Positions 4,058 through 46,307 are shown, numbered from the stretch's first letter. The stretch is DNA of 64,000 bases from an uncultured Gammaproteobacteria bacterium (GCA_964448465.1 CAYUVY010000001.1:25196-89195); one strand, 5' to 3'. Made by a program: numbers and translations. The notes: generated from the sequence alone by a model not told the origin.

Positions 4058-5646
4058 AAAAATACATCTTACTTCTTTTTTTAATAATCTTATTACCATA
4101 TTTCAAACTAATTTTACCCGGATTCCCTTCTTTACAAGATCAAATGCACCCTCTACGACTTACTGACTTGAGACAGTGTCTTTCGGATCACCAAATACCT
4201 TGCCGTTATTCTACAAAATCTGCCTTAGGTTATGGCTACCCCTTGTTTAATTTTTACGGCCAAGGTGCTTATCTTCTACCAGCATTATTCAGCTATATTT
4301 TACCCTTAAATTCCTACGATTTGATGAAAATTCAAATTATTCTTTTTGCCTGTATCGGTGGTTTGGGCATATTTTTATTAGCAAAAACCAACAAATTGGA
4401 CAACCCCACCTCGATCCTGTTTGCAACTATTTTTAGTTATACGCCATATTTTGCCTTAGATGTATATGTTCGAGGAGCAATACCTGAATTTTCCGCCTTA
4501 ATGCTCATACCATGGATCTTTCTTCTCTCTTACCAAAACAGAACTATTTTCACCAACCTCGCCCTATCCTTAATTATCTTGACCCACATTCAAACAGGTT
4601 TAATAACCTTATTAATTTACTTATTTTATCTTATATTCTCCCACAAAAACAGACAGGCTCTTCTAAGCCTTTTGACTACATTGTTACTTTGTAGTTTTTA
4701 CTTAATCCCCGTTATCTTAGAAAACAATTTGGTCCAACTGAGCTCTACAACGAAAGGCATTTTTGACTACAATATCCATTTTCTCAACTTAAAGCAAATA
4801 TTTATCTCACCTTTTTGGGGATACGGAGCCTCAACATGGCTTGACAAAGACGGTATGGGTTTTACGTTGGGAATACCTTTAATTTTTCTTATTGCTACCA
4901 GTGTGTATCTCTATTTTAAATATCAGCAAAAAAAATTACCAAGTACATTTTTACTAATTATTTCCATTCTTTTTATATTTCTGGCCCATACTCGTTCAGC
5001 TTTTATATGGAAAATATTACCACTCGGTTATTATCAATTCCCCTGGAGATTTTTAGGTCTGGCCTCAATATTCACAATTATATTTTCTATTAACATTGTC
5101 AGCAAAAGCAATCTCCAGGCAAAATCCTTACCATTATTTGGAATCATACTTATCACTATACTTATCAACGCTCCTTATTTTCGGCCAGATATGGTCTTAT
5201 CCTACGATTACTTAAATACTCCCCAAAAACAAATCGAAATATCCTTGGGTGGTATTCAAGACTATTGGCCTACTACAGCCAAATCTATTCCCACTACACC
5301 AGCTCCAAATTTATTGCTTAACCTTGGACCAAAATACTATCCAACAACAACTAGTTTTACAAGAAAAAGTAATAGCATAGAAATAAAAGCCATTAACCCA
5401 GTTAGACAAGAATTAATCATCCCCATGTCCTATTATCCCGGGTGGGAGCTATTCGTAAACAGTAATCCAACACACATCACCCTGGATTCCACTTCAGGGT
5501 TTCCTAAGATAACTTTAGATCCGGGGCAGTACCAAATAAACATGTACCTCCAGAAAACAAAAGTACAAAAATATTCTGAATACTTAAGCTTGTTAACTAT
5601 TTTTGCTTTAATTTTTATAAAGATCAAAAATGTCAAACAAGCATAA
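4054..5646 (+). CDS. Polytopic integral membrane protein, probable GT-C-like/YfhO-like glycan-modifying protein
   Basis: 530 aa and highly hydrophobic with more than 10 predicted TM segments. ATGA overlap with the upstream gene. No DE motif was seen, so assignment to GT-C is by context only. Confidence 0.5.
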   Translation: MKKYILLLFLIILLPYFKLILPGFPSLQDQMHPLRLTDLRQCLSDHQIPCRYSTKSALGYGYPLFNFYGQGAYLLPALFSYILPLNSYDLMKIQIILFACIGGLGIFLLAKTNKLDNPTSILFATIFSYTPYFALDVYVRGAIPEFSALMLIPWIFLLSYQNRTIFTNLALSLIILTHIQTGLITLLIYLFYLIFSHKNRQALLSLLTTLLLCSFYLIPVILENNLVQLSSTTKGIFDYNIHFLNLKQIFISPFWGYGASTWLDKDGMGFTLGIPLIFLIATSVYLYFKYQQKKLPSTFLLIISILFIFLAHTRSAFIWKILPLGYYQFPWRFLGLASIFTIIFSINIVSKSNLQAKSLPLFGIILITILINAPYFRPDMVLSYDYLNTPQKQIEISLGGIQDYWPTTAKSIPTTPAPNLLLNLGPKYYPTTTSFTRKSNSIEIKAINPVRQELIIPMSYYPGWELFVNSNPTHITLDSTSGFPKITLDPGQYQINMYLQKTKVQKYSEYLSLLTIFALIFIKIKNVKQA

Positions 5647-7243
5647 GATTGTCCTTATCTTAATATTCTTTCTTGGTTTATTCCTTCGAACTTACAAGCT
5701 AGGCGAATATCCTGCTAGCCTAAACTGGGATGAGGTAAGTCACGGTTATACTGCCTACAGCATTCTAAAAACTAGTAAAGATCAATGGGGGCAAAAATTA
5801 CCCATATTTAATTTTCGAGCTTACGGTGATTATCCTACAACCTTAAACATGTACACAACCATACCTCTAATTAAGCTATTGGGATTACAAGACTGGGTTA
5901 TTAGGCTTCCAACGGCGATTTTGGGCGCATCTATGATTATTTCAGCCTATTTTATCTCGCAATATTTTCTACAAAATGGCGCTGGTTCTTTATTAGTTAG
6001 TTTATTGGTTGCCATCTCACCTTGGACATTTTTCTCCAGTAGGGGAGTCTATCAGTCTACCGTAGGTCAGGCTATTTTTATGCTTGGACTTGCAGTTTTT
6101 TTTAGACAAAAAAACAAATTTGCCTTAGGTTTTGGGTCTTTAATTATTTCCTTATCAGTTTTTGGTTATCATTCCAATCGTATAGTTTCAAGTTTAATTT
6201 TAGTCTATTTAATTTACAAATATAAGCGAACTATTATTCAGCAACACTTATTTTCCAAATTACTGATTACTATCTCTATTCTCATAATTTGTTTTTCTAC
6301 GATAAACATCATTAGTCCCGAGTCTAGGGCCAGATCTGCCTGGGTTGGCATCCTAAACATTTCCTCTGAAAACACCATAAACGAGGCAAGGCGAATATCC
6401 CCACAACCAGAAATAATTAAAAAAGTACTCTACAACAAAGCCACCTACCTAATTCCCAGATTAATTGGTAATTTTTTTAACTTACAAAACCCAATACCAC
6501 TATTTGTTACTGGTTCCAACCAATATCAATACAATCTACCCAACTTTGGACTTATTTACCCCACGCTCTTACCTTTCTTCTACTTGGGCTTAATAATTAT
6601 TTTATTTAATCCAAAAAGAAGTAAAAATACCGATTTTCTTGTACTTTGGGCTGTTGCCTTAATTCCAAGTCTAATTACCACAGGTGACTTTCCTACGCTT
6701 CGTTTGGCGACCATAATTCCACTACCTTTTATCGCCATAACCTATGCACTAATAAAACTGCCCAAACTCTTTAGACCTTTAATTTTACTGGTGACTATTC
6801 CTTTGTTTATATTTTATTATTATCAATATTTTTTCAATTACAACACAACCTATTCCAGTTCTTGGCAATATGGTTATAAACAAGTTGTCGAAATAGTTAG
6901 GCCTTTATATCCCCAATATGACCATATCATTATTACCAAAAAATATGGTGAACCACATGAATTTGTACTATATTATTGGCCGTGGGACCCCCAAACTTAC
7001 CAACAAGATCAACAAAAAATAACAGATTATCACGCTAACTGGTATTGGGTCGATGCTTTTGATAAATTTGTTTTTGTCAACGACTGGGAGATGAGCTCTT
7101 ACCTACTACAACACAATAGTGAAAATAATTTAATAATTACCTCGCCAAATAATTACCCCAAAGATATAAACTATTCTCATCTTCAAACAATTAACTTTTT
7201 AAACCAGCAACCAGCTTTTGAAATAATTGCCAATGAAATATAA
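5630..7243 (+). CDS. GT-C fold membrane glycosyltransferase (ArnT/PMT_2-like)
   Basis: First-loop motif NWDEVSHGYTAYSILKTSKDQWG and an SRGVYQ motif are paralogous to the next two genes. 537 aa, polytopic. Confidence 0.75.
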   Translation: MSNKHKIVLILIFFLGLFLRTYKLGEYPASLNWDEVSHGYTAYSILKTSKDQWGQKLPIFNFRAYGDYPTTLNMYTTIPLIKLLGLQDWVIRLPTAILGASMIISAYFISQYFLQNGAGSLLVSLLVAISPWTFFSSRGVYQSTVGQAIFMLGLAVFFRQKNKFALGFGSLIISLSVFGYHSNRIVSSLILVYLIYKYKRTIIQQHLFSKLLITISILIICFSTINIISPESRARSAWVGILNISSENTINEARRISPQPEIIKKVLYNKATYLIPRLIGNFFNLQNPIPLFVTGSNQYQYNLPNFGLIYPTLLPFFYLGLIIILFNPKRSKNTDFLVLWAVALIPSLITTGDFPTLRLATIIPLPFIAITYALIKLPKLFRPLILLVTIPLFIFYYYQYFFNYNTTYSSSWQYGYKQVVEIVRPLYPQYDHIIITKKYGEPHEFVLYYWPWDPQTYQQDQQKITDYHANWYWVDAFDKFVFVNDWEMSSYLLQHNSENNLIITSPNNYPKDINYSHLQTINFLNQQPAFEIIANEI

Positions 7244-8750
7244 AAACTTAATTATATTTTTAATCCTGATCTTAGCCAGCCTACTCAGGATATACAAAGT
7301 TAACGTTTATCCGCCCTTACTTTGGGACGAAGCCTCCCTTGGTTACAATGCCTACAGTCTACTAAAAACAGGCAAAGATGAATTTGGTACAATCCTACCC
7401 CTCACTCTTAAGTCCTTTGGAGACTACAAGCCAGCCCTATACGCCTATATAGACATACCTTTTGTGGCCATTTTTGGATTAACCCAGTTTGCGGTTAGAC
7501 TACCTTCCGTTTTGGCCGGAATTCTTACTGTGTACTTAATTTATCTAGTCATAGATTTATATACTAAAAATACTAAACTAGCACTTCTGGCTAGTTTTTT
7601 ACTAGCAACTAATCCTTTTCATATCCTTCTTTCTCGAGGTGCCTGGGAAACAAATCTAGTTTCTACTTTCTTTTTAGCTGCTATATACTTTCTTCAAAAT
7701 AAAAAGTATTTGTTCTCAATCATATTTTTTGTTCTACCCGCCTACACCTATCAATCTGCCAAGTTAACTGCCCCACTTCTGTTTTTAACTACCTTATTAA
7801 TCTACCCAAAAGTAAAAACAGTATACAAATTAGCTATCTTTTTTTGTTTATTTTCTCCGTTAATTTTTCTAAATTTTTTTGGCAAGGATAGTAACCGATT
7901 TAAAACTATGACTATTCTTAGCTATACCCAGCCAGACATCAGTAAAACTAGTATTTTCTTTCCTCAGTTATGGTTTATGACTAAAAATGTATTGATACGC
8001 TATTTTAACCACTTTTCTCCTCAGCTATTGTTTACTCAAGGTGATTGGCAAAACCCCAGGCAATCCGCACCATATACAGGTATCTTGTTGCTAATTACCT
8101 TACCGTTTCTAATAATTGGTTTATTTTCTTCCAAACCAAATAAATTACATCAATTGCTGTTAATTTGGCTATTTTTGGCACCCATACCCAGTAGTCTGAC
8201 CAAAGACATTGTCCAACCTGTTCGTGCTACCTCTTTTATAATACCCCTAGTTTTTTTTACTGCAGTAGGTATCGAAAAAATTCTCAAACACAAGTTCCTC
8301 TTGAGTCTGTTCATTATTGTTTTGGTAATAAATTTAGCATATGTTCAAGAAATGTACTACCAACATATGGTTAAAAAATCACCGCAAGAGTGGCTATTTG
8401 GCTATCAAGAAGCAATCCAGTTTGCACTAAATAAACAATCCGAACAAACTTTTTTTACTAACTTTTATGGACAACCACACATCTATTATGCCTTTGTCTC
8501 CAAGATGGACCCAGTTTATTATCAGTCGCAGATAAAGTTGACAACCACAAGCAACGATGTGGGTACGGTTGACAAACTAAACAGCTGGGAATTTAAGGAT
8601 ATAAATTTTAACCAATACAAAGACTATAAAAATATTACTTTGGTTATGTCAAGAGACGAACTGTTAAGGCAAAACTTGGATTTTGCAATGTTTACACCAC
8701 TTGGTTCTACTGATATTAATTATGCAAATTTTTATGGTTATAAAAAATAA
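7227..8750 (+). CDS. GT-C fold membrane glycosyltransferase (ArnT/PMT_2-like), paralog
   Basis: Motifs LWDEASLGYNAYSLLKTGKDEFG and SRGAWETN are present. Clear paralog of the 8734..10311 gene. Confidence 0.75.
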   Translation: MPMKYKNLIIFLILILASLLRIYKVNVYPPLLWDEASLGYNAYSLLKTGKDEFGTILPLTLKSFGDYKPALYAYIDIPFVAIFGLTQFAVRLPSVLAGILTVYLIYLVIDLYTKNTKLALLASFLLATNPFHILLSRGAWETNLVSTFFLAAIYFLQNKKYLFSIIFFVLPAYTYQSAKLTAPLLFLTTLLIYPKVKTVYKLAIFFCLFSPLIFLNFFGKDSNRFKTMTILSYTQPDISKTSIFFPQLWFMTKNVLIRYFNHFSPQLLFTQGDWQNPRQSAPYTGILLLITLPFLIIGLFSSKPNKLHQLLLIWLFLAPIPSSLTKDIVQPVRATSFIIPLVFFTAVGIEKILKHKFLLSLFIIVLVINLAYVQEMYYQHMVKKSPQEWLFGYQEAIQFALNKQSEQTFFTNFYGQPHIYYAFVSKMDPVYYQSQIKLTTTSNDVGTVDKLNSWEFKDINFNQYKDYKNITLVMSRDELLRQNLDFAMFTPLGSTDINYANFYGYKK

Positions 8751-10311
8751 ACAACTTTTAGTAACAGTCATAATCATGATACTGGCTGTATTCCTAAGAG
8801 CATATCATCTTGATACTTACCCTCCAATCAACGCCGACGAGGCTGCCTTAGGTTATAACGCCTACAGTTTGTTGCAAACAGGCAAAGATGAACACGGTGC
8901 CTCCTGGCCTCTCCATTTCCAATCATTTGGAGACTATAAACCAGGTGGCTACATCTATTTATTGTTACCTTTTGTTAAAATTTTAGGATTAAATTCTCTT
9001 GCCTTACGTCTGCCAAACTTGCTTTTGTCGATTCTCTGTATTTATCTAGTGGGGCAAATATCTAGACTTATGTTAAAAAATGATTATGCACAATATTTTT
9101 CCATGTTATTTATGGCTATTTCACCTTGGCACATAATCTTTAGTCGTGGTGCCTGGGAAAGTAGTTTTGCTTTTTCTTTGTTTATTCTTGGTTTATATTT
9201 ATTCCTAAAAAAACAAAAGATAGTTATTACCGCCATCTTTTGGGCCCTTAGTCTATATTTTTATCATTCAGCTAGGGTTTTTCTTCCTTTGTTTTTATTA
9301 AGTTTACTTATTTCTAATATTAAAGATAAAATTGAGTTTAAACGAGTACTATTAATCGGTGTCTTAGTTGCACTTTTAAGTTTACCGGCTTTCGTTTCCT
9401 TTCTTAAAAATAGTGGCACAGCTAGGTTTAACGGTGTTGGCATTTTTGCTGACCTCGGACCAAAAAATCGTGCCGAAGAGTTGCTAAACCAAGATGCAAA
9501 CACAAAACTTATCAACAGAATCACCCACAACTACAGATTACTTTATCTATTTTCTTTTGTAGATAAATATTTATCCCATTTCAACCTAAACTTCTTATTT
9601 ATAGAAGGGGATAGCGTCCCACGCTCTAAACTACCAGACCTTGGGCAAACTAGTCTATTTTTCTTTCCTTTATTTCTTTTGGGTTTATTTGCTTTGACCA
9701 AGCTAGACAGCAAGACAAAAATACTAATGCTTATTTTGTTATTTACCTCTCCCATTGCCTCTGCTTTAACCTTTCAGGCACCTTCTGCCCTTCGCAGTCT
9801 TTATCTTTTGCTTCCTTTGACTTTAATACTTACTCTTGGCTCACTACAACTACTAAAGTATAAAAGGACTTTTTTAACATTATTCACAATAGCCACACTT
9901 TTTAGCACCACCCAGCTAATCTATAGTTATTTCTATCGCTATCCTCGAGAACTATCCTTAGCTTGGCCTTATAGATTCCAGGAAGTAGTTAACTATCTAA
10001 AGACAAATAATTCCAATAACCTACCAGTTTATTTTACAAATACTTACGATCAGCCATATATACTTTACCTGTATTATTCCCAGTACCCTCCTTCCCGAGC
10101 CCAGACTCAAACTAAACTTACCACTCCCGACCAGTTTGGTTTCTCCACTGTCGAAAAGATAGATAACATAACTTTTGAGATTCCCAAATATACTGATATC
10201 GCCTCAAATTCCACCATAGTTGCTTCTAATGAAGTTATTCCAATCCTGCCAAAATTAACTTTTAATTTCGCAAATGGCCAAAATGCGTTTAAAATATATC
10301 AAAAGCCATGA
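8734..10311 (+). CDS. GT-C fold membrane glycosyltransferase (ArnT/PMT_2-like), paralog
   Basis: Motifs NADEAALGYNAYSLLQTGKDEHG and SRGAWESS are present. The N-terminus aligns with the 7227 gene when started at ATG 8734. The track start at 8683 is probably too far upstream. Confidence 0.75.
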   Translation: MVIKNKQLLVTVIIMILAVFLRAYHLDTYPPINADEAALGYNAYSLLQTGKDEHGASWPLHFQSFGDYKPGGYIYLLLPFVKILGLNSLALRLPNLLLSILCIYLVGQISRLMLKNDYAQYFSMLFMAISPWHIIFSRGAWESSFAFSLFILGLYLFLKKQKIVITAIFWALSLYFYHSARVFLPLFLLSLLISNIKDKIEFKRVLLIGVLVALLSLPAFVSFLKNSGTARFNGVGIFADLGPKNRAEELLNQDANTKLINRITHNYRLLYLFSFVDKYLSHFNLNFLFIEGDSVPRSKLPDLGQTSLFFFPLFLLGLFALTKLDSKTKILMLILLFTSPIASALTFQAPSALRSLYLLLPLTLILTLGSLQLLKYKRTFLTLFTIATLFSTTQLIYSYFYRYPRELSLAWPYRFQEVVNYLKTNNSNNLPVYFTNTYDQPYILYLYYSQYPPSRAQTQTKLTTPDQFGFSTVEKIDNITFEIPKYTDIASNSTIVASNEVIPILPKLTFNFANGQNAFKIYQKP

Positions 10312-13939: not shown

Positions 13940-15457
13940 ATGTCTAAGAAAAAACTATCCATAGCTATTTCTTACCCCCCTCTAGAAACCAACAAAGGCA
14001 CAGCCTTTTTATCCCAAAATCGCCAGTTTCAATGGACAAATACAGGAAATTGTATATATCCAGTAATCCCAGCTTATGCCGCTAGTTTGTTAGAAAGAGA
14101 AGGCTACCAGGTTTATTGGGACGACGCTATTGCCGAAAAACTCAGCAAAGATCAATGGCTCAAACGGATATTAGAATTAAAGCCAGACGTCATTGCCATT
14201 GAGTCCAAAACACCTACTATCAAATGGTACTGGCAAGTTATCGATGAACTACGCACCTACCAAACTAAATCCTGGCAACCCACCATAGTCTTGCTTGGTG
14301 ATCATCTTACGGCTCTTCCCCAAGAATCCCTAGAAAATTGCTCTGTAGACCTGGTAATCACTGGTGGCGACTATGATTTTATGTTGCTAAATCTAATGAA
14401 CAACTTGGATCACGGAGAAACCTTAGAACCTGGTATCTGGTACAGGGATGGTAAAACTATAAAAAACACCGGTCCATATGCTTTAAAACACCACAATCTC
14501 GACAGCTTGCCTTTTATTAACCGAGATCTAACTAAATGGGAACTTTATGCCTACAACAATGGCAATTATAAATACACTCCAGCCACCTATATGATGACCG
14601 GACGCGACTGCTGGTGGGGTAAGTGTACCTTTTGCTCTTGGACCACTATTTTCCCCGGTAAGGCATTTCGGTTTTTTACTCCCAAGCGTACTCTTGCCGA
14701 AGTAAAACACGTGGTCGACAATTATAGTATCCGCGAGATTTTTGATGACGCCGGTACTCTCACTCCGGGCGCCTGGATTCATGAATTTACCAAAGGACTA
14801 ATATCATCAGGTCTACACCAAAAGGTTCGTTATGGAGCCAATATGCGCTTTAATGCTGTTGGTGAAAAAGAGTACCAAACCATGGGTGAAGCCCGATTTA
14901 GATTTATGCTCTATGGCCTAGAATCTAGTAATCAAAAGACTTTAGATCTACTTGAGAAAGGTACCAAAACCGAGGACGCCAGAAAGTCCCTAACTTTAGC
15001 CAAAAAATACGGTATGGAACCACACTTAACTATCATGATTGGTTATCCTTGGGAAACTCGTCAAGATGCCCTAAATACTCTAGAAGAAGCCCGAAGCTTA
15101 TTTCGAGACTGCCTGGCCGATTCTATGCAAGCCACCATTGTCATACCCTATCCTGGTACACCGCTATTTAAACAATGCCAAGAAAATAATTGGCTTTTAA
15201 CCAACGATTGGAACGATTATGATATGCGCCAAGCTATCATGAAATGCGACATGGGCACAGAAGAATTAAAAGCCATGGTTCAGAGTTTATTCAAAGGGGT
15301 GCTTACACCAAAATTCTTAACCAAAAAGATTAGTTCTATTCGCAGCGTAGATGACGTTAAGCATCTGGGTAGCTATGCCTATAAGTTTATTAAAAAACTG
15401 AAGGATTTCCCAGTCTACAATGCCAACACTCTCGGTAGTCATACCCACGCTCAATAG
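13940..15457 (+). CDS. B12-binding-domain radical SAM-like enzyme (class B-like), function unknown
   Basis: N-terminal Rossmann-like B12-binding-type domain (KPDVIAIESKTPT...IVLLGDHLTALP...LVITGGDYDF). Cys triad GRDCWWGKCTFCSW has Cx4Cx2C spacing rather than the canonical Cx3Cx2C. A downstream GLESSNQKTLDLLEKG motif matches the rSAM core. Locally elevated GC. Confidence 0.65.
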   Translation: MSKKKLSIAISYPPLETNKGTAFLSQNRQFQWTNTGNCIYPVIPAYAASLLEREGYQVYWDDAIAEKLSKDQWLKRILELKPDVIAIESKTPTIKWYWQVIDELRTYQTKSWQPTIVLLGDHLTALPQESLENCSVDLVITGGDYDFMLLNLMNNLDHGETLEPGIWYRDGKTIKNTGPYALKHHNLDSLPFINRDLTKWELYAYNNGNYKYTPATYMMTGRDCWWGKCTFCSWTTIFPGKAFRFFTPKRTLAEVKHVVDNYSIREIFDDAGTLTPGAWIHEFTKGLISSGLHQKVRYGANMRFNAVGEKEYQTMGEARFRFMLYGLESSNQKTLDLLEKGTKTEDARKSLTLAKKYGMEPHLTIMIGYPWETRQDALNTLEEARSLFRDCLADSMQATIVIPYPGTPLFKQCQENNWLLTNDWNDYDMRQAIMKCDMGTEELKAMVQSLFKGVLTPKFLTKKISSIRSVDDVKHLGSYAYKFIKKLKDFPVYNANTLGSHTHAQ

Positions 15458-17423: not shown

Positions 17424-18395
17424 ATGGCTAAAAATACACATAGCAAGGTAACTGTCATCATACCTGCCAGAAACTCCGAAACAACCATAGAACAAACAAT
17501 ATTGTCTTTAAACAAGCAATCTAAATATTTTGGAGAGCTTATCATCGTAGACAACGCATCCACAGATAATACCCTGAAAATTATAAAACAAACAGTTGAG
17601 AAAATAAATACAAACATACTGGTAACAATTATTAATCACCCCAAAGACAAAGGACTTTCCGAAAGTTACAACGAAGCCATAAAAATATCTAAGGGTACAA
17701 TAATCGTAACTTTACATTCTGACATTTTACTAGAGAAAGACGCTCTCGTCTTGTTAACAAAGCCACTATTAGAAAATAGTAATGTCCTAGCCACCACACA
17801 TCAGGTCATCCACCCTCTCAAAATTTGGCTAAACTATAATTTTTGGCAAAAGTCACTTTTTTCCAGACACCTTGGAAAAACGTTATCTGGAATGGATGGA
17901 AAGTTTGATGGTTTTAACAAAAAAGCAATAATTGAAGTGGGATTGTTTGATTCTACATCTTTCCGTACGGCAGGTGAGGACAGTGATATCGTAAACAGAT
18001 TAAAGAAAATAGGGGAGATAATCTATACCAAGGCAACCATCGTCCACATGCATACATATAGTAAAAACTTTAATTTGAATGATTTAATTTATAAGCACGC
18101 ACAATATGCAGAAGCACAAGGTACTTTACTAAGAAAACATGGACCCGTTGGTTTCAAATATATATTAATAGTTTACTTTAGAGAAATACTTATCCTCTCT
18201 TTGCTAATACCATATTTTAGAATAATTTCCTTGGTCCTAATATTAATATACTCATTTTTGTATACAAAAAATACATATATTTACGAACACAAAAATCCGA
18301 GAATAATTATTCTTCCGTTTGTAAACGTATTCCTACTTTTTGTAAGCTTGATATTTACAATCAGAGGCTACTTGCGAAATAAGCAAACTATTTAA
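17424..18395 (+). CDS. Glycosyltransferase family 2 (GT2) with C-terminal TM helices
   Basis: VTVIIPARNSETTIEQTILSL...VDNASTDNT, with a hydrophobic C-terminal region. Confidence 0.75.
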   Translation: MAKNTHSKVTVIIPARNSETTIEQTILSLNKQSKYFGELIIVDNASTDNTLKIIKQTVEKINTNILVTIINHPKDKGLSESYNEAIKISKGTIIVTLHSDILLEKDALVLLTKPLLENSNVLATTHQVIHPLKIWLNYNFWQKSLFSRHLGKTLSGMDGKFDGFNKKAIIEVGLFDSTSFRTAGEDSDIVNRLKKIGEIIYTKATIVHMHTYSKNFNLNDLIYKHAQYAEAQGTLLRKHGPVGFKYILIVYFREILILSLLIPYFRIISLVLILIYSFLYTKNTYIYEHKNPRIIILPFVNVFLLFVSLIFTIRGYLRNKQTI

Positions 18396-18840
18396 ATTTT
18401 ATTGACCAATCGTAGGGAATTTCAGTATTATTTATTGGATCTAGTCTAATAATCTCCTCGGGATCATGGGGTAAAGTTGCGCAATTAGCTACTATAGCCA
18501 CAGGAGAGCTTATTCCTTTAAATCCATTCCAAACCCCAGTAGGAATTGTTACCAAACTATAGTTTTCGGAACCTAAAAATATTTCTTGGACTTCTCCTTT
18601 GGTCTTAGAATTTTCTCTTGGATCATACAAAACTAGCTTGATCATTCCTGAAACAACGGCATAATTTAAAGTCATCAATTTGTGCAAGTGCCAACCCTTA
18701 ACTACCCCAGGGTAAACAGTTGAAAAATATATTTCTCCAAACTTAATAAAATCAGGATCGTCTGATCTTAACATGGGGTAAATAGCCCCTCTTTCGTCCG
18801 GTCGCTTTGTTAATTGTTTAATCCTTACTCCTTCAATCAT
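18388..18840 (-). CDS. RmlC-like cupin nucleotide-sugar epimerase/isomerase (3,5-epimerase or FdtA/WxcM-like)
   Basis: 150 aa. ERGAIYPMLRSDDPDF...GEIYFSTVYPGVVKGWHLH is typical of dTDP/CDP-4-keto-6-deoxyhexose 3,5-epimerase-type cupins. Last gene of the CDP-sugar operon. Confidence 0.65.
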   Translation of the reverse strand: MIEGVRIKQLTKRPDERGAIYPMLRSDDPDFIKFGEIYFSTVYPGVVKGWHLHKLMTLNYAVVSGMIKLVLYDPRENSKTKGEVQEIFLGSENYSLVTIPTGVWNGFKGISSPVAIVANCATLPHDPEEIIRLDPINNTEIPYDWSIKFK

Positions 18841-19753
18841 AATTTTTTAAATAACTCTTAATGGTTAATTTTAAACCATCTTCAATTGCAGTGGTAGGTT
18901 CCCATCCTAGCATGGCCTTTGCTTTTGAAAAGTTACAGCTCAAGAATCTAACGTCTTTGGGTATAACATTCCCCCAGCTAACTATAGGTTTTTTCTTTAA
19001 GTACTTTTCAACCACAGCTACGATTTTTCTGATAGTTACTACTTTTCTATTACCGATCAGAAAAGACTCATATTTGGTATTACTTATACTTGATGCAAAC
19101 TTAATTGCTTTAAGATAAGCCATAACCACATCTCCCACATAAGTAAAACACAATTTTTGCCTACCATCAGACAAACCATACGTGGTGTTATTTATAGTAT
19201 TTATAATAATTTTCGGAACAACTTTGTCGTTGTCAGCCTCACCATACACATATATTGGCTTCAAAGTAATCCCTCTTATTAGACCTCTATCCACTTGGTA
19301 CTTAAAAATATTTTCAAAAGCAATCTTCAGAGCGGCATAGTAATTTAAAGGCTTAAGTATGGAGTTTTCGTTAATAGCTTTTGAGCTCAAAGCATATTCA
19401 AAACAAGTACCGGTATTAATAAAAGCCTTTACTTTTCCAACAATGCACCACTCTAACAATCTAGATGGTAAAACAAAGTTTGATTCAATCATCCGCATTT
19501 TTTCCTCGTAAGTACTCTCGTCTCGCACATAATCAGTTGCCATATGAATCAACACATCCACACCACCTAGTTCAAGTATCCTACGACAATCATCCAAATC
19601 TACAATTAGCTTAACCTTGCTGGATATGTCTCTAATTCTGTCAAATTTTGAGTTAGCACGAGCTAATAAAAATACTTCATAACGCAAATCAACCAACTTT
19701 CTAACCAAGTGACTTCCTACAAAGCCCGTGCCGCCAGTCAACAAAATTTTCAT
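18833..19753 (-). CDS. NAD(P)-dependent sugar epimerase/reductase (SDR), RfbJ/RfbS-like CDP-4-keto-3,6-dideoxyhexose reductase candidate
   Basis: MKILLTGGTGFVGSHLVRKL Rossmann motif and a YAALK YxxxK motif. About 300 aa. Sits directly downstream of the E1 gene. Confidence 0.65.
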   Translation of the reverse strand: MKILLTGGTGFVGSHLVRKLVDLRYEVFLLARANSKFDRIRDISSKVKLIVDLDDCRRILELGGVDVLIHMATDYVRDESTYEEKMRMIESNFVLPSRLLEWCIVGKVKAFINTGTCFEYALSSKAINENSILKPLNYYAALKIAFENIFKYQVDRGLIRGITLKPIYVYGEADNDKVVPKIIINTINNTTYGLSDGRQKLCFTYVGDVVMAYLKAIKFASSISNTKYESFLIGNRKVVTIRKIVAVVEKYLKKKPIVSWGNVIPKDVRFLSCNFSKAKAMLGWEPTTAIEDGLKLTIKSYLKNYD

Positions 19754-20985
19754 AAATATTTTGTCAAAAATTCTTGTGTGGTTTTTACTACATATTCTAT
19801 GTCTTCAACAGAAATACCTGGATAAACACCCAACCAAAAAGCATTATTCATAATCATATCGGCTTTTTCCATCAAACCCACTATTTTATATTTAGACTTG
19901 TGTTCCAAATAGGCCGGATGTCGCAGTAAGTTACCAGAAAATACATTACGAGTGCCTATCATGTGGTTTTCCAAATAGGATGTTAGCTCGTTGCGAGTAA
20001 AAGGAGCCTTTGGTTTAACTAATATGGGAAATCCAAAATAGGAGACATCTTCTTTTGGATTATTTTTTAACAACTTAAAGAATTTTTTATACTTTCCAAA
20101 AAATTCTTCTAACAAATTATAATTACGTTGCCTAATTTTTATAAAATTTGGCAATTTCCTCAATTGGGCTAATCCTATGGCTGCCTGGAAATCTGTAAGC
20201 TTTAAATTAAACCCTATCTCCGAATATATATATTTATGATCATAACCTTCGGGTAGTTCTCCAAGTTTCCAGCCAAATCTCTTGTTACAGGTGTTATCTT
20301 TGCCAGGAGCACACCAACAATCTCTTCCCCAATCTCTAAACTGGCGCATTTTTGTGTGCAATATAGCACTGTTAGTCACCACGGCGCCTCCCTCACCCAT
20401 AGTTATTTGATGTGCAGGGTAAAAGCTATAAGTAGCCATATCCCCAAAGGTTCCAAGCATCTTACCTTTATACTTTGAACCCAAAGCATCACAACAATCT
20501 TCGATTAACCATAAATTATACTTTTTACACAACTTTACAATTTTATCTATCTCAAAAGGCTTACCAAGAGTATGAGCCAACATTATCAACTTTGTTTTTT
20601 TTGTTATATTTTTTTCTATTTGGGAAGTATCAATATTTAGTGTGTCCAAAGAAGCATCAATAAAAATTGGTTTTAGTCCAAACATCAAGGCGGGGTTAAC
20701 CGTAGTGGGAAATGCCACTGCAGTGGTTATAAACTCATCTCCTGCTCTTAATCTTCTTTCTTTAAAAATACGAGAGGTCAAAGTGGCCAATGCCAGCAAA
20801 TTTGCCGAGGAACCAGAATTTACCAAAGAAACATGCCTAACCCCCAAAAACTTCTTAAATTCTGACTCAAACTCCAAAGCGAATCTTCCCTCAGTCCACC
20901 AACCATCTTTTGCTGCTTCAATTGCGTTATTTATTTCCGACTCATCAAAAACTTTCCCAGAAACTTGGATATATTTTCTATTCAT
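19750..20985 (-). CDS. rfbH: CDP-6-deoxy-D-xylo-4-hexulose 3-dehydrase (E1, DdhC/RfbH-type; DegT/DnrJ/EryC1 fold)
   Basis: SFYPAHQITMGEGG has His in place of the PLP-binding Lys, as in E1 and ColD. The Cys pattern DCC-x57-CWC-x7-C matches the E1 [2Fe-2S] motif Cx57CxCx7C as I remember it. Adjacent to rfbF and rfbG. Confidence 0.8.
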   Translation of the reverse strand: MNRKYIQVSGKVFDESEINNAIEAAKDGWWTEGRFALEFESEFKKFLGVRHVSLVNSGSSANLLALATLTSRIFKERRLRAGDEFITTAVAFPTTVNPALMFGLKPIFIDASLDTLNIDTSQIEKNITKKTKLIMLAHTLGKPFEIDKIVKLCKKYNLWLIEDCCDALGSKYKGKMLGTFGDMATYSFYPAHQITMGEGGAVVTNSAILHTKMRQFRDWGRDCWCAPGKDNTCNKRFGWKLGELPEGYDHKYIYSEIGFNLKLTDFQAAIGLAQLRKLPNFIKIRQRNYNLLEEFFGKYKKFFKLLKNNPKEDVSYFGFPILVKPKAPFTRNELTSYLENHMIGTRNVFSGNLLRHPAYLEHKSKYKIVGLMEKADMIMNNAFWLGVYPGISVEDIEYVVKTTQEFLTKYL

Positions 20986-21955
20986 TAAAATAAGTCTTGT
21001 ACCATTTATAAATTTTTTTAACTACTTTCTCATAAGTATACAATCTTTTCCAACCTAGCATTTTTTTAGCCTTTTCATCATCTAACTTTTGGTATGCTAA
21101 TTCGTTTTTTGCATTATCCAAAATACTATACTTCAATTTTTTACCCAAGACACTTTCTGATAATCTTATTAAATCAATTACACTAAGGGAGTCCTCTGAG
21201 CCAAAATTAAAAGCTTCACCTTTAATATTTTCGATCTTAGACCCCATCAACAAATAACCATTTACCACATCATCTACGTACAAATAATCCCTTACTTGTT
21301 TGCCGTTGCTCCTTAACTCTAATAGCTGATTTAGGCAAAAACTTTTCATAATTGCTGGTACTATCCTAGAAAAGTATAAATCACCTTCTCCATATATATT
21401 ACCAGCCCTAGCTATGGCAACAGGTAATTGATAGGTTTTCCAGTAAGTATGGGCAATTAAATCAGCACAACTCTTAGATACATCATAAGGATGATCGCCC
21501 TTTAGGGGGTCAGACTCCTTATATTTATCCCCAGACCTTAGTGGCCCATAGGCCTTGTCCGAGGTAACCACTACAATTGCTTTAATTCTAGGATAATTTC
21601 TGGCAGCCTCCAGTATATTAACTGTCCCCATTATATTAGTCTCTAGGCACTCTTTTGGGTTAACATAAGCCACACCCACAATTGGTTGAGCAGCTAAATG
21701 AAAAATATAGTCAATCTCGGCGCCAGTGATCAAATTAAATAAGCCATTGTAGTCTCTTACATCTAAATTTTCCAAAACCAATCTTGGAGAATGCATCTTT
21801 ATGAGGTCAAATTTTATTAAATTATCCTGCTTATAGGTACAAACCACGCTAGCCCCCAAACTTAGTAACTTTCTTACTAGGTTACTCCCCACAAAGCCGG
21901 TACCCCCTGTCACCAATACGTTCTTGTTAAGATACGCGTCCCTTAAAGTTCCCAT
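20978..21955 (-). CDS. rfbG: CDP-glucose 4,6-dehydratase-like SDR
   Basis: VLVTGGTGFVGSNLVRKL, TSDKAYG and YDVSK (YxxxK) motifs. Located between rfbF and rfbH. Confidence 0.7.
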   Translation of the reverse strand: MGTLRDAYLNKNVLVTGGTGFVGSNLVRKLLSLGASVVCTYKQDNLIKFDLIKMHSPRLVLENLDVRDYNGLFNLITGAEIDYIFHLAAQPIVGVAYVNPKECLETNIMGTVNILEAARNYPRIKAIVVVTSDKAYGPLRSGDKYKESDPLKGDHPYDVSKSCADLIAHTYWKTYQLPVAIARAGNIYGEGDLYFSRIVPAIMKSFCLNQLLELRSNGKQVRDYLYVDDVVNGYLLMGSKIENIKGEAFNFGSEDSLSVIDLIRLSESVLGKKLKYSILDNAKNELAYQKLDDEKAKKMLGWKRLYTYEKVVKKIYKWYKTYFNE

Positions 21956-22707
21956 ACCTTACCTTTCTCATCTACAATTTTATTTAAATCTTCAAGCTCT
22001 TTGTATGTGTCAACAGCATACCAAAAACCAGTATGCTTAAATATTGCCAACTGTCTATCTTTAGCCATTTTATCCAAGGATACAAAGTCCATTTCATCTT
22101 TAGAAAAATATTTTAAAGCTTTTCTCTTATAAACCATAAATCCAGCATTTGTCCAGTCTGACATTATGGGTTTTTCTTCAATTTGCACAACAACTCCCTT
22201 CTCATCAACATGAATCTTGCCGTATTTTGACCTAGGATGAGCACACAATACTGTACCAGCCAGTCCAGTCTTTTTGTGAAACTCGTGAAACTTTTTAAAA
22301 TCTACAGAAGCCAAGCCGTCAGCATAGCAAACCATAAAATCTTCGTCCTCCTTGGGAATATATTTGGCGCACATCAAAATTCTTTCTGCGGTTTTTGTAT
22401 AACTACCCGTAGCTAATAAGGTAACTTTAAAATTTAAGTTAAGCTTATTAAAATATTTTATTTTACCTGTTTTTAAGTTTAGCTGAAGGTCGTTATCTCG
22501 TTGTTTAAAGTTTAAAAAATATTCCTTTATCTGGTTACCCATTAACCCTGTTGTCAAAATAAAATCATTGTAACCATACTTCATAAAATGATTCATAATG
22601 TGCAACACTATCGGCTTCCCTGCAACTTCCACCATCGACTTAGGTTTGAATTGTGTTTCTTCTTTTAGTCTTGTACCCGTACCCCCACACAAAATAATTA
22701 CTTTCAT
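21943..22707 (-). CDS. rfbF: Glucose-1-phosphate cytidylyltransferase
   Basis: MKVIILCGGTGTRLKEETQFKPKSMVEVAGKPIVLHIMNHFMKYGYNDFIL is a near-textbook RfbF/DdhA N-terminus. 254 aa. Confidence 0.85.
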   Translation of the reverse strand: MKVIILCGGTGTRLKEETQFKPKSMVEVAGKPIVLHIMNHFMKYGYNDFILTTGLMGNQIKEYFLNFKQRDNDLQLNLKTGKIKYFNKLNLNFKVTLLATGSYTKTAERILMCAKYIPKEDEDFMVCYADGLASVDFKKFHEFHKKTGLAGTVLCAHPRSKYGKIHVDEKGVVVQIEEKPIMSDWTNAGFMVYKRKALKYFSKDEMDFVSLDKMAKDRQLAIFKHTGFWYAVDTYKELEDLNKIVDEKGKVWEL

Positions 22708-22743
22708 ATAAGTTTAGTCAACAAATTAGGAAATATTATAACA

Positions 22744-22770
22744 TTTACAATATCGAACACAATTATACTA
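22744..22770 (+). promoter_or_regulatory. Candidate sigma70-like promoter (TTTACA-15 bp-TATACT) in the 138-bp divergent intergenic region upstream of the GT4 at 22846
   Basis: Hexamers read directly from the sequence. This is an AT-rich context, so chance occurrence is likely. Confidence 0.15.
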
Positions 22771-22845
22771 TATTTGGCAATTTGACCACACGATTAAAGA
22801 TAGAATAGAAATGTTAAAATTGACCAATTAACTAGACAAGAGTTT

Positions 22846-23961
22846 ATGAAAATAGCATTTTTTTGTGCACCCTCCTTACTTAGTGGTGCTGGGGCAGAAC
22901 AATATATGATCAACATAGCAAAGCTAATTCACAATGAAAACCCCAAATACACTGTAGAAATCGTTACTCTAAACACTAATTTTATGGTATTTCTATCCAA
23001 AGTGTTAAACATTGTCTATTCTTTTGATTTTTTTTCAAAATTGAAGTTTAGACATACACGCGATGAAGTTAATAGTATGATAAGTCCTATACCTTGGAAA
23101 GAAATTTCAACTAGAAACATTGGTCTATTAAACGATTACGATATTATTTATACAAAAAACGAAATAATCGATTTATTTTTTTTAAAAATTGCAAAGTTAT
23201 CAAAAAATATTAAGGTTATCGTGGGAGTACATACACCCATCTACTACCCGCATCCAGAAAATTTATTTGGTAAATTACATAATTTCATCTATACATCCTT
23301 TATTTACAAGTGGTTAATCGAGAAAAATTGGATACTTCACACCAGCAATTCTCAAGATCTAAAATGTCTCAAAGAGTATAAAAATGTTTACATACCCTAC
23401 CCGTTTAATTTTAAGTTGAATTCCAATAGTATTGTAAAAAGGGAAATTAAAAATGTTGGATTTACCGGAAGAATATCCATACAAAAGGGAATACGAGTTC
23501 TCGTGTCTACACTTGAAACTGTGGCCCCAAAGTTTCCCAAAATAAATTTTTATATTTATGGATCGGGGGAAAAATGGTTAGAAAATAGCTTGCAAGAACT
23601 AAGCAATAAGTGTCTAAACATAAAATATGACGGCCACGTTTCACACCCAAAATTACTTACCAAACTAAAAAAAATTGATCTCTTGCTAGCACCAAGCATG
23701 TGGGAAGTCTTACCCTTTTCAGTGCTCGAAGCTCAGTCTCTGGGCATCCCGGTAGTCAGTTTTAATATCCCTGGACCCAAAGACATAATTATCAACCACC
23801 AAACAGGTGAACTAGTAAATTCGGAAATAGAATTTCAAAATACTAGTCAAAAGTTACTTAAGGGGGGGTATGTAGCATATGACCGCCAAAGTTATAATAA
23901 GCAAAAGCAATTTTTTGACCCAAAAAAAGTAAACAAACAAATCTTGAAACTCTTTCAGTAA
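22846..23961 (+). CDS. Glycosyltransferase family 4 (GT4)
   Basis: WEVLPFSVLEAQSLGIPVVSFNIPGPKDII is a GT4 C-domain motif. Confidence 0.75.
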   Translation: MKIAFFCAPSLLSGAGAEQYMINIAKLIHNENPKYTVEIVTLNTNFMVFLSKVLNIVYSFDFFSKLKFRHTRDEVNSMISPIPWKEISTRNIGLLNDYDIIYTKNEIIDLFFLKIAKLSKNIKVIVGVHTPIYYPHPENLFGKLHNFIYTSFIYKWLIEKNWILHTSNSQDLKCLKEYKNVYIPYPFNFKLNSNSIVKREIKNVGFTGRISIQKGIRVLVSTLETVAPKFPKINFYIYGSGEKWLENSLQELSNKCLNIKYDGHVSHPKLLTKLKKIDLLLAPSMWEVLPFSVLEAQSLGIPVVSFNIPGPKDIIINHQTGELVNSEIEFQNTSQKLLKGGYVAYDRQSYNKQKQFFDPKKVNKQILKLFQ

Positions 23962-35038: not shown

Positions 35039-36769
35039 TTAATTTGTTCTAGTACAGCGGTAGATCAATGTATTCTCAAACAACGCTAGGCTTTGAAAAT
35101 ACCAAGCAGATTTATCTAACTCAAGCTTCTTGCAAACTCGATTTCGGTTCCAATAAATTATTTCTAAATTTAACCACTGCTTATCGCCAATTACCAATAT
35201 ACTCTTCTCAGCATCAACTCTCTTCAATAGCAGTTTAAAATTCTCTGAGACCAGCTTGCTGTTAATCAATTCAACATATCTTGTTTCATCAACGGCATTT
35301 ACTATATTTGCACCTTTATAACTAGCCAAATATGCGAAAAAAGATTCCGGTCCACGAAAAGCAACTACAACCGTTTCCTTCTCTCCAATTATCGACTCGT
35401 ATCCATTTACCATATCGTCTAGCCGATCTTTCCCCAATAATTTTAGACTATCTATATATGTTTTTACAAAAAAAGGCCTATTGGCAGTATTTTGTAACCA
35501 AATCAAGTTAGGTCGCCAACCAAAATCAGTTGAAACCGAAGTAAAACACAAGATCACAAAAACAACGAATAGCAGCCACCACCTCTTTAATCTAAGGCTG
35601 TAATTAAGTTTTAATGCGTATACTAAATACAACCAATAAACTGCAGCAAAAGTTAACAAATAGCGCGAGTAACCCATTAGCACCGACCAAATCAAATAAC
35701 AAAAAATAAATATAATATATTTCCACTTTCTTTTAATTAGTAACAAATACCACGATAGCAAGTAGGGGAATGCCCAAAAACACGCAAAAAAGTACTTAGC
35801 TTCAGTTTTTACAATACCTTCTCCAAATCTTTGAGTAAATTGAGCCATTACCGGCCATGCCAATATCTCTTGCCAATTTTGTGGCCCCCACCTCGTGTCT
35901 TTAAAACTAACCAATGCATAAAATGGTGACTTAAAAAATCCATTGTATAAAAATGAAATTGGGTTTCCAGTATTTATGTATGATGCTCCAAAAAATATAA
36001 ACACAAACAATACAATTAATATTACCCAAAACCATTTAATTTCTCTTTTATTTTGCCAGACAAAGTATAAAAATATTGGCATTAAGACAATCCCAGCAGA
36101 TTGTTTGATTATCATTGATAGCAAACCCACAATAACTCCCAATGTTCGATTACCTGTCTTAACAACAAGCTGATAAAACATTTCCAAACCCAAAACAAGC
36201 GTCAAAAAATCTACCATAAATGTTGTGTGGGTTGCCATCAGGTGAGGAACAAAAAATATGTATATAAAAATAATGTCCCACCATATCTTTTTATTATTAT
36301 TTTTCTCTACTTGCTTTAGTCTTAAATTAATCGAGGCGTACCATGCAATCAACAAAATACCATTAAATAGTAAACTTAACCTTATCCCAAAAACCTTTAA
36401 TAATAACGGATATCCCAACTGGGCAACAGGATAAATATATGAACCAAAATCTAGGGGCAAAAAATTTACTGCCTGCCAAATATTTTTTGCATACCATCCA
36501 GCCTCCAAGTGGAAAGCAAAATCATCATAAACAGGATAATAAATAGGGAAGCGACTCAATAAGACTACCCACAGAGGCACGGTCCACCACCAATCGATTA
36601 AATAAAATTTAATTTGCTTGTCCTTATTATTTCTCCACAAAACATACCAAATTATTATCCACAAAATCAATAATCCCCATCCAAAATAATCACTAATATT
36701 AAAAACCGAAATCACGGCCAGCATCACCACCCCTGCCAACAAAAAACTAATATAAATCAATCTTGCCAT
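35039..36769 (-). CDS. Large polytopic membrane protein with C-terminal soluble domain; possible GT-C-like glycosyltransferase
   Basis: 576 aa with more than 12 hydrophobic segments. A YPVYDDFAFH acidic motif is near the N-terminus. The C-terminal 150 aa are hydrophilic. Confidence 0.45.
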   Translation of the reverse strand: MARLIYISFLLAGVVMLAVISVFNISDYFGWGLLILWIIIWYVLWRNNKDKQIKFYLIDWWWTVPLWVVLLSRFPIYYPVYDDFAFHLEAGWYAKNIWQAVNFLPLDFGSYIYPVAQLGYPLLLKVFGIRLSLLFNGILLIAWYASINLRLKQVEKNNNKKIWWDIIFIYIFFVPHLMATHTTFMVDFLTLVLGLEMFYQLVVKTGNRTLGVIVGLLSMIIKQSAGIVLMPIFLYFVWQNKREIKWFWVILIVLFVFIFFGASYINTGNPISFLYNGFFKSPFYALVSFKDTRWGPQNWQEILAWPVMAQFTQRFGEGIVKTEAKYFFACFWAFPYLLSWYLLLIKRKWKYIIFIFCYLIWSVLMGYSRYLLTFAAVYWLYLVYALKLNYSLRLKRWWLLFVVFVILCFTSVSTDFGWRPNLIWLQNTANRPFFVKTYIDSLKLLGKDRLDDMVNGYESIIGEKETVVVAFRGPESFFAYLASYKGANIVNAVDETRYVELINSKLVSENFKLLLKRVDAEKSILVIGDKQWLNLEIIYWNRNRVCKKLELDKSAWYFQSLALFENTLIYRCTRTN

Positions 36770-36798: not shown

Positions 36799-38187
36799 AT
36801 GCTTTTCAGCTCGAATATATTTTTACTAATATTCCTTCCCGCAATCCTTCTTTTGTATTTCTCGGTCTCCAAAATATTTAAAAATCCAAATAATTTTCTA
36901 AATTTAATACTTATCTTTTTTAGCCTATTTTTTTACTATTGGGGCAGTGGCAAATTTATTCTAATCTTCTTCTGTTCCATCATGTTAAATTTTCTTTTAG
37001 GCCAATTAATTGCAAAAAAAACAAACTTAAAAAAATATTTTTTATTTCTTGGCATTACTGGCAACATTTCCTTACTTATATATTTCAAATATTTTCAATT
37101 TTTTTATCAGCAAACATCTTTTTTACTTCATCTTGGTCTACCACCACTAAATCCTATATTTCTCCCCATTGGTATTTCCTTTTATTCTTTTATGGCCATT
37201 TCCTATCTTGTAGATGTTTACCAACAAAAACAAAAACCTGCAAACCTCCTCAGCTTTACACTGTATATTAGTTTGTTCCCTCATTTAGTTGCTGGACCAA
37301 TTGTCCGCTATCAGGAAATTGCCGACAGTATTAAGAAACGAAGTCCCAACACAGATCAGTTTTTCAATGGACTATGGCGATTTTCCCTGGGACTTGGTAA
37401 AAAAGTAATTATTGCCAATTCCGTAGGACAGCTTGCTGATAAAGTTTTTAGCCTCCCGTTAAACGAAATTGGCTCGCTACTCGCAATTTTGGGAGTACTT
37501 GCTTATACAATTCAAATCTATTTCGATTTTTCTGGTTACTCCGATATGGCGATAGGTCTTGCCAGTTTCTTTGGTTTTACTTTTCCTGAAAATTTCAATC
37601 ATCCTTACCGTGCTGTTTCCATCACTGACTTTTGGCGTCGTTGGCACATGTCTCTATCCCGATTTTTTCGTGACTATCTGTATATACCCCTAGGTGGTAG
37701 TCGTACAGGATCTGCCAGAACCTATTTCAACCTACTTGTTGTCTTTATTCTCTGTGGTCTTTGGCATGGTGCAGCTTGGACCTTTGTAGCCTGGGGTTTA
37801 TACCACGGATTGTTACTAACCATCGAAAGAATTGCTAAGAACAAATTTAATTTTGAACCAAGTGGCATAATATTTCAGTTATTTACTTTCTTACTGGTTT
37901 CTATTGGCTGGATAATATTTCGTTCACCGAACCTTACCTTTGCATTATCTTACGTAAAAAATATATTTTCGTTTACTAACACCATACCTGAGTTTTACAC
38001 ACTTCGATATTTTGTACCCAACAACATTGCTTTCTTTTTAGCGCTTGGCTTGTTACTTTCATTCATACCAGCAACCAAACCAAAAAACGTTGTCATTTGC
38101 GGACTTGTCTCCATATTTATACTAATACTTTCACTTGCCTATCTATCCAAAACCTCATTTACTCCTTTTATATATTTTCAATTTTAA
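36799..38187 (+). CDS. MBOAT-family membrane O-acyltransferase (AlgI/DltB-like)
   Basis: WRRWHMSLSRFFRDYLYIPLGG and FPHLVAGPIVRY are hallmark MBOAT/AlgI motifs. The conserved His is in GLWHGAAW. Confidence 0.85.
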   Translation: MLFSSNIFLLIFLPAILLLYFSVSKIFKNPNNFLNLILIFFSLFFYYWGSGKFILIFFCSIMLNFLLGQLIAKKTNLKKYFLFLGITGNISLLIYFKYFQFFYQQTSFLLHLGLPPLNPIFLPIGISFYSFMAISYLVDVYQQKQKPANLLSFTLYISLFPHLVAGPIVRYQEIADSIKKRSPNTDQFFNGLWRFSLGLGKKVIIANSVGQLADKVFSLPLNEIGSLLAILGVLAYTIQIYFDFSGYSDMAIGLASFFGFTFPENFNHPYRAVSITDFWRRWHMSLSRFFRDYLYIPLGGSRTGSARTYFNLLVVFILCGLWHGAAWTFVAWGLYHGLLLTIERIAKNKFNFEPSGIIFQLFTFLLVSIGWIIFRSPNLTFALSYVKNIFSFTNTIPEFYTLRYFVPNNIAFFLALGLLLSFIPATKPKNVVICGLVSIFILILSLAYLSKTSFTPFIYFQF

Positions 38188-46292: not shown

Positions 46293-46307
46293 GCAATACC
46301 TGAGTAT

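Follow-up and report, generated by a model that had tools for sequence, protein, structure and literature searches.

A probable operon for a CDP-activated 3,6-dideoxyhexose in a very large surface-glycan locus of Candidatus Shapirobacteria

The window considered here is a stretch of 64,000 nucleotides (GCA_964448465.1, CAYUVY010000001.1:25196-89195) deposited under the name of an uncultured Gammaproteobacteria bacterium. On its minus strand, five intact open reading frames (ORFs) run from position 22707 to 18388, and successive genes overlap by 13, 8, 4, and 8 nt, as is typical of a translationally coupled operon (Table 1). An original prediction, made from the DNA alone, had read these genes as an operon for a sugar of the cytidine diphosphate (CDP)-3,6-dideoxyhexose type, comprising a cytidylyltransferase, a 4,6-dehydratase, the 3-dehydrase E1, a reductase, and a cupin; all five ORFs were recovered, overlapping and on the minus strand, and the reading is upheld for the type of operon and is correct for the first three enzymes. 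At the 5′ end, the operon is faced by a plus-strand GT4 glycosyltransferase gene (22846-23961) across the sole non-coding gap there, which presumably holds the promoter; a scan for promoter and terminator consensus sequences gave no enrichment over shuffled sequences and is not used as evidence. The 3′ end overlaps that of a convergent GT2 glycosyltransferase gene. Contigs from several sequencing runs carry the operon in identical form. Taken together with the evidence below, these genes probably form a working operon that makes a CDP-activated 3,6-dideoxyhexose within a very large surface-glycan locus of Candidatus Shapirobacteria.

The case begins with the third gene. Its product belongs to the DegT/DnrJ/EryC1 family of fold-type I enzymes (PF01041, E=1.5e-96), passes the cutoff of the NCBIfam RfbH equivalog NF011936 (620.5 bits, cutoff 423), and is approximately 53% identical to Salmonella RfbH. 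Its closest solved relatives are E1 structures of Yersinia pseudotuberculosis (3bcx, E=2.2e-138; 3bb8, E=4e-137), and residues 5-407 align by HMMER with residues 33-433 of 3bcx_A, which is nearly the full length; ColD trails far behind (3e-53), and ordinary sugar aminotransferases rank lower still. Two residue-level claims had been attached to this protein, namely that histidine replaces the lysine that would bind pyridoxal phosphate (PLP) and that its cysteines have the spacing of the E1 [2Fe-2S] ligands, and both were borne out by alignment with the Yersinia enzyme. The histidine, His192, lies within the motif SFYPAHQITMGEGG (residues 187-200) and is aligned on Yersinia His220, and no lysine occupies the PLP position; the sequence of 3bb8, the published H220K variant of Yersinia E1, has lysine in this same alignment column. 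Cysteines are found at residues 153, 164, 165, 223, 225, and 233, and the last four have exactly the spacing C-x57-C-x1-C-x7-C, which was reportedly described as the [2Fe-2S] motif of E1 by Agnihotri and colleagues in 2004. Counted from the printed alignment, Cys165/223/225/233 fall on Yersinia Cys193/251/253/261. Across 203 aligned sequences (the window E1, 120 database homologs, and the E1 ORFs of related loci), His192 and the four ligand cysteines are invariant, while the positions of Cys153, Cys164, and Yersinia Cys257 vary freely. Because the histidine and the four cysteines are fixed while other cysteine positions drift, the alignment indicates that the [2Fe-2S] ligand site is clearly under selection, even where no gene for the partner reductase E3 is linked.

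The two genes directly upstream in the same operon are those that would supply the E1 substrate. The cytidylyltransferase (PF00483, E=1.7e-19) has Salmonella RfbF as its best match in the PDB (1tzf, E=9e-43 over residues 2-250, with the runner-up at 2.5e-12) and G1P_cyt_trans (TIGR02623, 202 bits) as its best match in NCBIfam. The next gene encodes a short-chain dehydrogenase/reductase (SDR) whose best NCBIfam match is CDP_4_6_dhtase (TIGR02622, 235 bits, vs. 173 bits for the dTDP-glucose dehydratase model) and which in the PDB is closest to two CDP-glucose 4,6-dehydratases, 1wvg and 1rkx (E~1e-43), whose active-site strings ‘TSDK’ and ‘Y..SK’ it shares in the alignment. The two enzymes are probable, divergent equivalents of RfbF and RfbG. 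The first three enzymes are thus those common to the Yersinia asc cluster (ddhD-ddhA-ddhB-ddhC-ascE-ascF) and to Salmonella rfbIFGH with prt/abe/tyv, and the E1 histidine and cysteine signatures are identical to those of both systems.

The Yersinia and Salmonella clusters carry ddhD/rfbI, whereas the window operon has no linked E3. This absence, which had been claimed for the window, was confirmed by domain, tblastn, and phmmer searches alike. E3 (DdhD/RfbI) combines an N-terminal plant-type [2Fe-2S] domain with flavin adenine dinucleotide (FAD)- and nicotinamide adenine dinucleotide (NAD)-binding domains like those of ferredoxin-NADP reductase. Pfam domains were assigned, directly or via identical contigs, to essentially every window ORF of at least 100 amino acids (aa), and no Fer2, FAD_binding_6, or NAD_binding_1 protein was present among these ORFs. 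The query for sequence searches was Salmonella RfbI (324 aa, with the CKAGDCGIC and RSYS motifs), taken from the rfbC-rfbF gap of the Salmonella record; when the window and all fetched loci were searched with tblastn and phmmer, the sole match was RfbI itself. In PLSDB record NZ_CP022016.1, a 473-kb Salmonella ‘plasmid’ with a chromosomal rfb region, rfbI (locus L090, 5019-5993) is intact, yet the gene table as distributed omits it. Contigs that match the ends of the window at 100% and 99.98% identity add 5.9 kb upstream and 12.5 kb downstream, and no E3 was found in these flanks.

Comparison was made with 80 rfbH loci (L010-L089, each extending up to 10 kb on either side), which are those returned from GTDB species-representative genomes and which derive from Acidobacteriota, Chloroflexota, Planctomycetota, Verrucomicrobiota, Bacillota, Deinococcota, Proteobacteria, several lineages of the candidate phyla radiation (CPR), and archaea. 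No E3 homolog was detected by tblastn or phmmer within 10 kb of rfbH at any of the 80 loci, and none lies near rfbH on an Azospirillum plasmid either. ORF clustering likewise revealed no recurrent redox protein within 5 kb of rfbH. The recurrent neighbours, assigned by reading representative sequences rather than by family scan and with spurious overlapping or antisense ORFs set aside, are SDRs, cytidylyltransferase, GT2 glycosyltransferases, a YerE-like thiamine diphosphate (ThDP)-dependent protein, methyltransferases, NeuB-like proteins, transketolase halves, and the cupin; as no redox family is among them, a conserved neighbour as the reductase was ruled out. A small redox partner was likewise rejected after a motif scan (ferredoxin and plant-type Fe-S) that took in window ORFs down to 30 aa and, for the 80 loci, those down to 40 aa: in the window, only the radical S-adenosylmethionine (SAM) protein listed in Table 1 and a few non-specific CxxC-type strings matched, and in the 80 loci only two unrelated proteins of ~410-445 aa, located 6-7 kb from rfbH.

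Among these 80 environmental relatives, the lack of an E3 gene linked to rfbH is the normal state, and the window is no anomaly. Since a linked E3 was met with at none of the 80 loci, this linkage marks the enterobacterial clusters and not the protein family, and the significance that the original prediction implied for the missing reductase is not supported. A precedent has moreover been published. SpnQ, the TDP-4-keto-2,6-dideoxyglucose 3-dehydrase of spinosyn forosamine synthesis, is an E1 homolog with pyridoxamine phosphate (PMP), a catalytic histidine, and a [2Fe-2S] cluster that has no dedicated E3 and runs instead on ferredoxin/ferredoxin reductase or flavodoxin/flavodoxin reductase (reviewed in PMC8987622). 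SpnQ differs in acting on a TDP-2,6-dideoxy substrate within an actinomycete natural-product cluster, whereas the window E1 passes the RfbH equivalog and stands in a CDP-glucose context; by analogy, the general-reductase supply of SpnQ may serve as a working model for the electrons of the window E1.

Two other explanations of the missing reductase have to be weighed here. That the pathway is incomplete or decaying through loss of E3, which neither the window nor 18 kb of flanking sequence contains, is extremely unlikely, given that the five genes are intact, overlapping, and of full length relative to solved homologs, that catalytic residues are intact and the identical E1 protein occurs in 18 contigs, and that an E3-less arrangement in 80 of 80 relatives is incompatible with repeated recent decay. 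The second possibility is that E1 without E3 performs no reductive deoxygenation and either releases its product hydrolytically in the manner of ColD, with PMP derived from glutamate, or acts as a 4-aminotransferase in the manner of SpnQ, which without a reductase is an aminotransferase using PLP and glutamate (PMC8987622); this would accommodate the lack of an E1-linked reductase both here and in the 80 related loci. It is nevertheless judged very unlikely. An unused cluster could hardly account for the invariance of the four ligand cysteines in all 203 homologs, against the drift of non-ligand cysteines. ColD, the GDP-4-keto-6-deoxymannose 3-dehydratase of colitose synthesis, shares the fold and the replacement of lysine by histidine with the window E1 but lacks an Fe-S cluster, relies on glutamate for regeneration, uses a GDP sugar, and is by far the weaker structural match; and neither E1 nor ColD has transaminase activity under the conditions used for SpnQ (PMC8987622). 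Reductive 3-deoxygenation is thus the preferred reading of the third gene.

The two remaining genes would tailor the product of E1. The second SDR (PF01370, E=5.8e-33) has an N-terminal GGTGFVG motif and a Y139-x3-K pair and is 41% identical to the gene at the same position in a Roizmanbacteria operon (L016), and its context suggests that it is a 4-ketoreductase. Its identity to the CDP-paratose synthase (Prt) of Salmonella in L090 is only 27% (70 bits), which is not close, and it has no specific family match; the label ‘RfbJ/RfbS-like’ given to it earlier is therefore not specifically supported.

The cupin matches PF00908 (39.8 bits), and its best PDB match is 3ejk (E=1.2e-32), with canonical RmlC structures at only ~1e-5; against the RmlC model TIGR01221 it scores 24 bits, for a cutoff of 156. 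It is not a canonical RmlC and belongs to an uncharacterised clade around 3EJK, a structural-genomics entry and the sole solved member of that clade. In an alignment with Salmonella RmlC, His63 is retained as His51 in the cupin, and this base histidine is conserved in 123 of 124 members of the cupin family. In RmlC itself, His63 and Tyr133 form the base/acid catalytic pair (PMC9095892). The description ‘RmlC-like cupin epimerase’ therefore stands as regards the cupin fold, PF00908, and the base histidine, which the protein shares with RmlC and with SpsL-like short RmlC/3EJK cupins, and fails in that its nearest relatives form the 3EJK clade and that asparagine replaces the tyrosine. A 152-aa RmlC-family protein from a rhamnose-type cluster of Priestia, 38% identical to the cupin, retains the tyrosine. 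Homologs 65-76% identical to the cupin occur in Planctomycetes, Chloroflexi, Bacillota, CPR bacteria, and DPANN-type archaea. The clade is more conserved across distant bacterial and archaeal phyla than is E1 itself. The cupin gene lies beside cytidylyltransferase, dehydratase, and SDR genes together with E1 in seven loci (L016, L021, L031, L054, L065, L075, and L076) and without E1 in two others (L092 and L094). All of these loci link it to cytidylyltransferase and dehydratase genes, whether or not E1 is present. RmlC clusters, by comparison, have thymidylyltransferase genes where this clade has cytidylyltransferase genes.

From these assignments, a pathway can be proposed. The cytidylyltransferase would form CDP-D-glucose, which the first SDR would convert to CDP-4-keto-6-deoxy-D-glucose. 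E1 would then bind this sugar as a Schiff base with PMP, and elimination of the 3-hydroxyl would be driven by His192; the resulting glucoseen-PMP adduct would accept two one-electron transfers through the [2Fe-2S] cluster held by Cys165/223/225/233 to give CDP-4-keto-3,6-dideoxy-D-glucose. The electrons would come from a reductase system encoded elsewhere, be it an unlinked E3 or, on the pattern of SpnQ, a general-purpose ferredoxin or flavodoxin paired with its reductase. The cupin would next epimerise C5 and the second SDR would reduce C4, so that the product would be a 3,6-dideoxyhexose of the L series, either ascarylose-like or epimeric with it at C4. The surrounding glycosyltransferases would use this sugar, and the Wzm/Wzt-type ATP-binding cassette (ABC) exporter of the locus would export the finished glycan. 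Sequence homology and conserved motifs support the route as far as CDP-4-keto-3,6-dideoxy-D-glucose; which donor supplies the electrons, what the cupin and the second SDR do, and how the product is configured we infer. In Yersinia, CDP-ascarylose is made via ddhDABC with ascE and ascF, and 6-deoxy-L-altrose via ddhAB with altA and altB (PMC5399914). By analogy with these two modules, of which one includes E1 and the other does not, as is also true of the clusters that hold the cupin, C5 epimerisation followed by C4 reduction is the simplest reading. The order of the asc module, in which E1 is followed by an epimerase and a reductase, matches that of the window, the likeness to AscE/AscF being one of gene content only, with no matching NCBIfam model, and the ColD pathway also proceeds by a later 5-epimerisation and 4-reduction to an L-3,6-dideoxyhexose, as proposed here. 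The end product is uncertain; by analogy with these systems, an L-series, ascarylose-like sugar appears likeliest.

Several observations weigh against this scheme. The cytidylyltransferase and the first SDR both score below the equivalog cutoffs of their best NCBIfam models (300 and 278 bits, respectively), so that their nucleotide specificity is probable and not certain. The second SDR has only generic GalE-like matches in both NCBIfam and the PDB, and without a specific family match the stereochemistry of the product is a guess. No electron donor was identified in the ~82 kb of genome inspected. The cupin is no more than a putative epimerase: the catalytic Tyr133 of RmlC is replaced by Asn119, within an invariant Ala-Asn-Cys, Lys73 is replaced by alanine, the protein stops before the C-terminal segment that holds Asp170, and a literature search found no biochemical work on the 3EJK clade.

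The points concerning the cupin feed a serious rival, in which the steps through E1 are unchanged and the second SDR reduces C4 directly to give a D-series 3,6-dideoxyhexose of the paratose or abequose type. The cupin would in that case be inert or act elsewhere, e.g., in a 3-epimerisation or ketoisomerisation of CDP-4-keto-6-deoxyglucose that leads to a second 6-deoxy sugar. A role of this kind would suit its substitutions, its H-x-H string, which resembles that of ketoisomerases, and a weak FdtA match in Pfam (22.5 bits, just below the cutoff); occurrence in clusters without E1 implies that it needs no 3-deoxy substrate, and it is found in just 8 of the 80 rfbH loci. Set against this are the translational coupling of the cupin to the SDR and E1 in one operon, the recurrence of an SDR-cupin pair after E1 in L016, matches to RmlC-type proteins (1e-5) that are far better than those to ketoisomerases (0.3-1), the near-universal retention of the RmlC base histidine, and the low identity of the second SDR to Salmonella paratose synthase. 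On balance, the D-series product is regarded as unlikely, and the L-series product is preferred. Rather more doubtful is the combined proposal that E1 enzymes outside the enterobacteria, those of metabolically minimal CPR bacteria included, which keep the invariant [2Fe-2S] site with no E3 gene within 10 kb at any of the 80 loci, may need a lineage-specific donor, not a housekeeping ferredoxin, and that the cupin may be a mechanistically new CDP-sugar epimerase.

Despite the label of the assembly, the host is a Candidatus Shapirobacteria (Patescibacteria/CPR) metagenome-assembled genome (MAG). The glycyl-tRNA synthetase (GlyRS) gene lies on a Logan contig identical to the window end, and the same protein is also encoded on a 113-kb NCBI contig; of its seven named relatives, six (80-86% identity) are Candidatus Shapirobacteria proteins and the seventh is from a Patescibacteria group bacterium. 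The four loci with the closest E1 proteins in GTDB (L010, L011, L014, and L017; 65-72% identity) are also labelled ‘uncultured Gammaproteobacteria’ and have GC contents of 31-39%, like CPR loci; these labels are probably placeholders or errors. More than 8000 database homologs scored for E1, and among the 120 matches listed all are at least 68% identical, several being in Patescibacteria/Roizmanbacteria MAGs under the names ‘lipopolysaccharide biosynthesis protein RfbH’ or ‘CDP-6-deoxy-D-xylo-4-hexulose-3-dehydrase’. RfbH homologs at ~70% identity are already annotated in many Patescibacteria, and the Roizmanbacteria genome UBA1450 (L016) shares the five-gene order of the window operon. The description of these sugars as classically Salmonella and Yersinia determinants is accordingly not supported. 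A possible horizontal transfer of the operon also gained no support from composition: its GC content equals that of the window (0.352 in both), the third-codon-position GC of the five genes lies within about one standard deviation of that of the other ORFs, and no compositional sign of recent transfer was seen in either comparison with the window. Within 5 kb of rfbH, 33 of the 80 loci encode a ThDP-dependent, acetolactate synthase-like (YerE-like) protein of ~600 aa, as read from one representative sequence, and 11-12 have transketolase-like halves. Together these neighbours suggest that the E1 product is commonly elaborated into branched-chain, yersiniose-like sugars in Acidobacteriota, Chloroflexota, and other groups.

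The window and its flanks are one glycan-assembly region, with many GT2 and GT4 genes, GT-C genes, methyltransferases, and the ABC exporter; the flanks add more glycosyltransferases and a flippase, followed by RecO, ClpP, GlyRS, and dcw genes. The large membrane proteins of the window (Table 1) look like GT-C type glycosyltransferases or polymerases. The second nucleotide-sugar module encodes a hexapeptide acyltransferase, a 633-aa SDR-GFO/IDH/MocA fusion, a GT2 glycosyltransferase, an RmlA-like nucleotidyltransferase, an RmlB-like dehydratase, and a GDP-mannose 4,6-dehydratase. The split GT4 gene is either a pseudogene or the result of two assembly frameshifts. At L092 (900-4021), on a contig with a protein that NCBI names from a Planctomycetes MAG, two B12-binding radical SAM proteins flank the cupin module; such proteins, one of which lies near the operon in the window, may C-methylate or otherwise modify the glycan.

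Table 1. Features of the 64,000-nucleotide window, with the genes of the operon given first in order of transcription.
Feature	Position	Strand	Size	Remarks
Glucose-1-phosphate cytidylyltransferase (RfbF/DdhA-like)	21943-22707	minus	254 aa	First gene of the operon
CDP-glucose 4,6-dehydratase (RfbG/DdhB-like extended SDR)	20978-21955	minus	325 aa	
E1/RfbH/DdhC	19750-20985	minus	411 aa	PMP- and [2Fe-2S]-dependent CDP-6-deoxy-L-threo-D-glycero-4-hexulose 3-dehydrase
Extended SDR	18833-19753	minus	306 aa	Putative NAD(P)H-dependent 4-ketoreductase for 3,6-dideoxy-4-hexulose
RmlC-like cupin, 3EJK clade	18388-18840	minus	150 aa	Putative C5 (or 3,5) epimerase of CDP-4-keto sugar
Divergent AT-rich intergenic region	22708-22845		138 bp	Presumed promoter; gap between operon and GT4 gene
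Five consecutive paralogous membrane proteins	2333-10311		~510-575 aa	Weak PMT/PMT_2 matches only
B12-binding radical SAM protein	13940-15457			CWWGKCTFC motif; among GT2 genes, 3 kb from operon
Further large membrane proteins	35039-36769, 41122-42720, 56608-59378			One DUF2079, one weak PMT_2
MBOAT and AlgX-like SGNH pair	36799-39395			Arrangement of exported-polysaccharide O-acetylation
Second nucleotide-sugar module	42722-49071			
Split GT4	49998-50510, 50507-50818, 50773-51081			Three ORFs in three frames

CPR bacteria are usually described as lacking lipopolysaccharide. If this holds for the present host, the sugar would enter some other surface glycoconjugate and ‘lipopolysaccharide biosynthesis protein RfbH’ would be a misnomer; in contrast to the situation in Yersinia and Salmonella, the glycan is unlikely to be an O antigen. 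The understanding of the pathway is itself unchanged, as publications already cover the enzyme family with its signatures and a precedent that does without E3, and RfbH is annotated in many Patescibacteria MAGs. The operon adds one more data point to the view that rare dideoxy sugars adorn the surface of CPR/Patescibacteria, and it shows the textbook pairing of E1 with E3 to be the exception among the genomes sampled.

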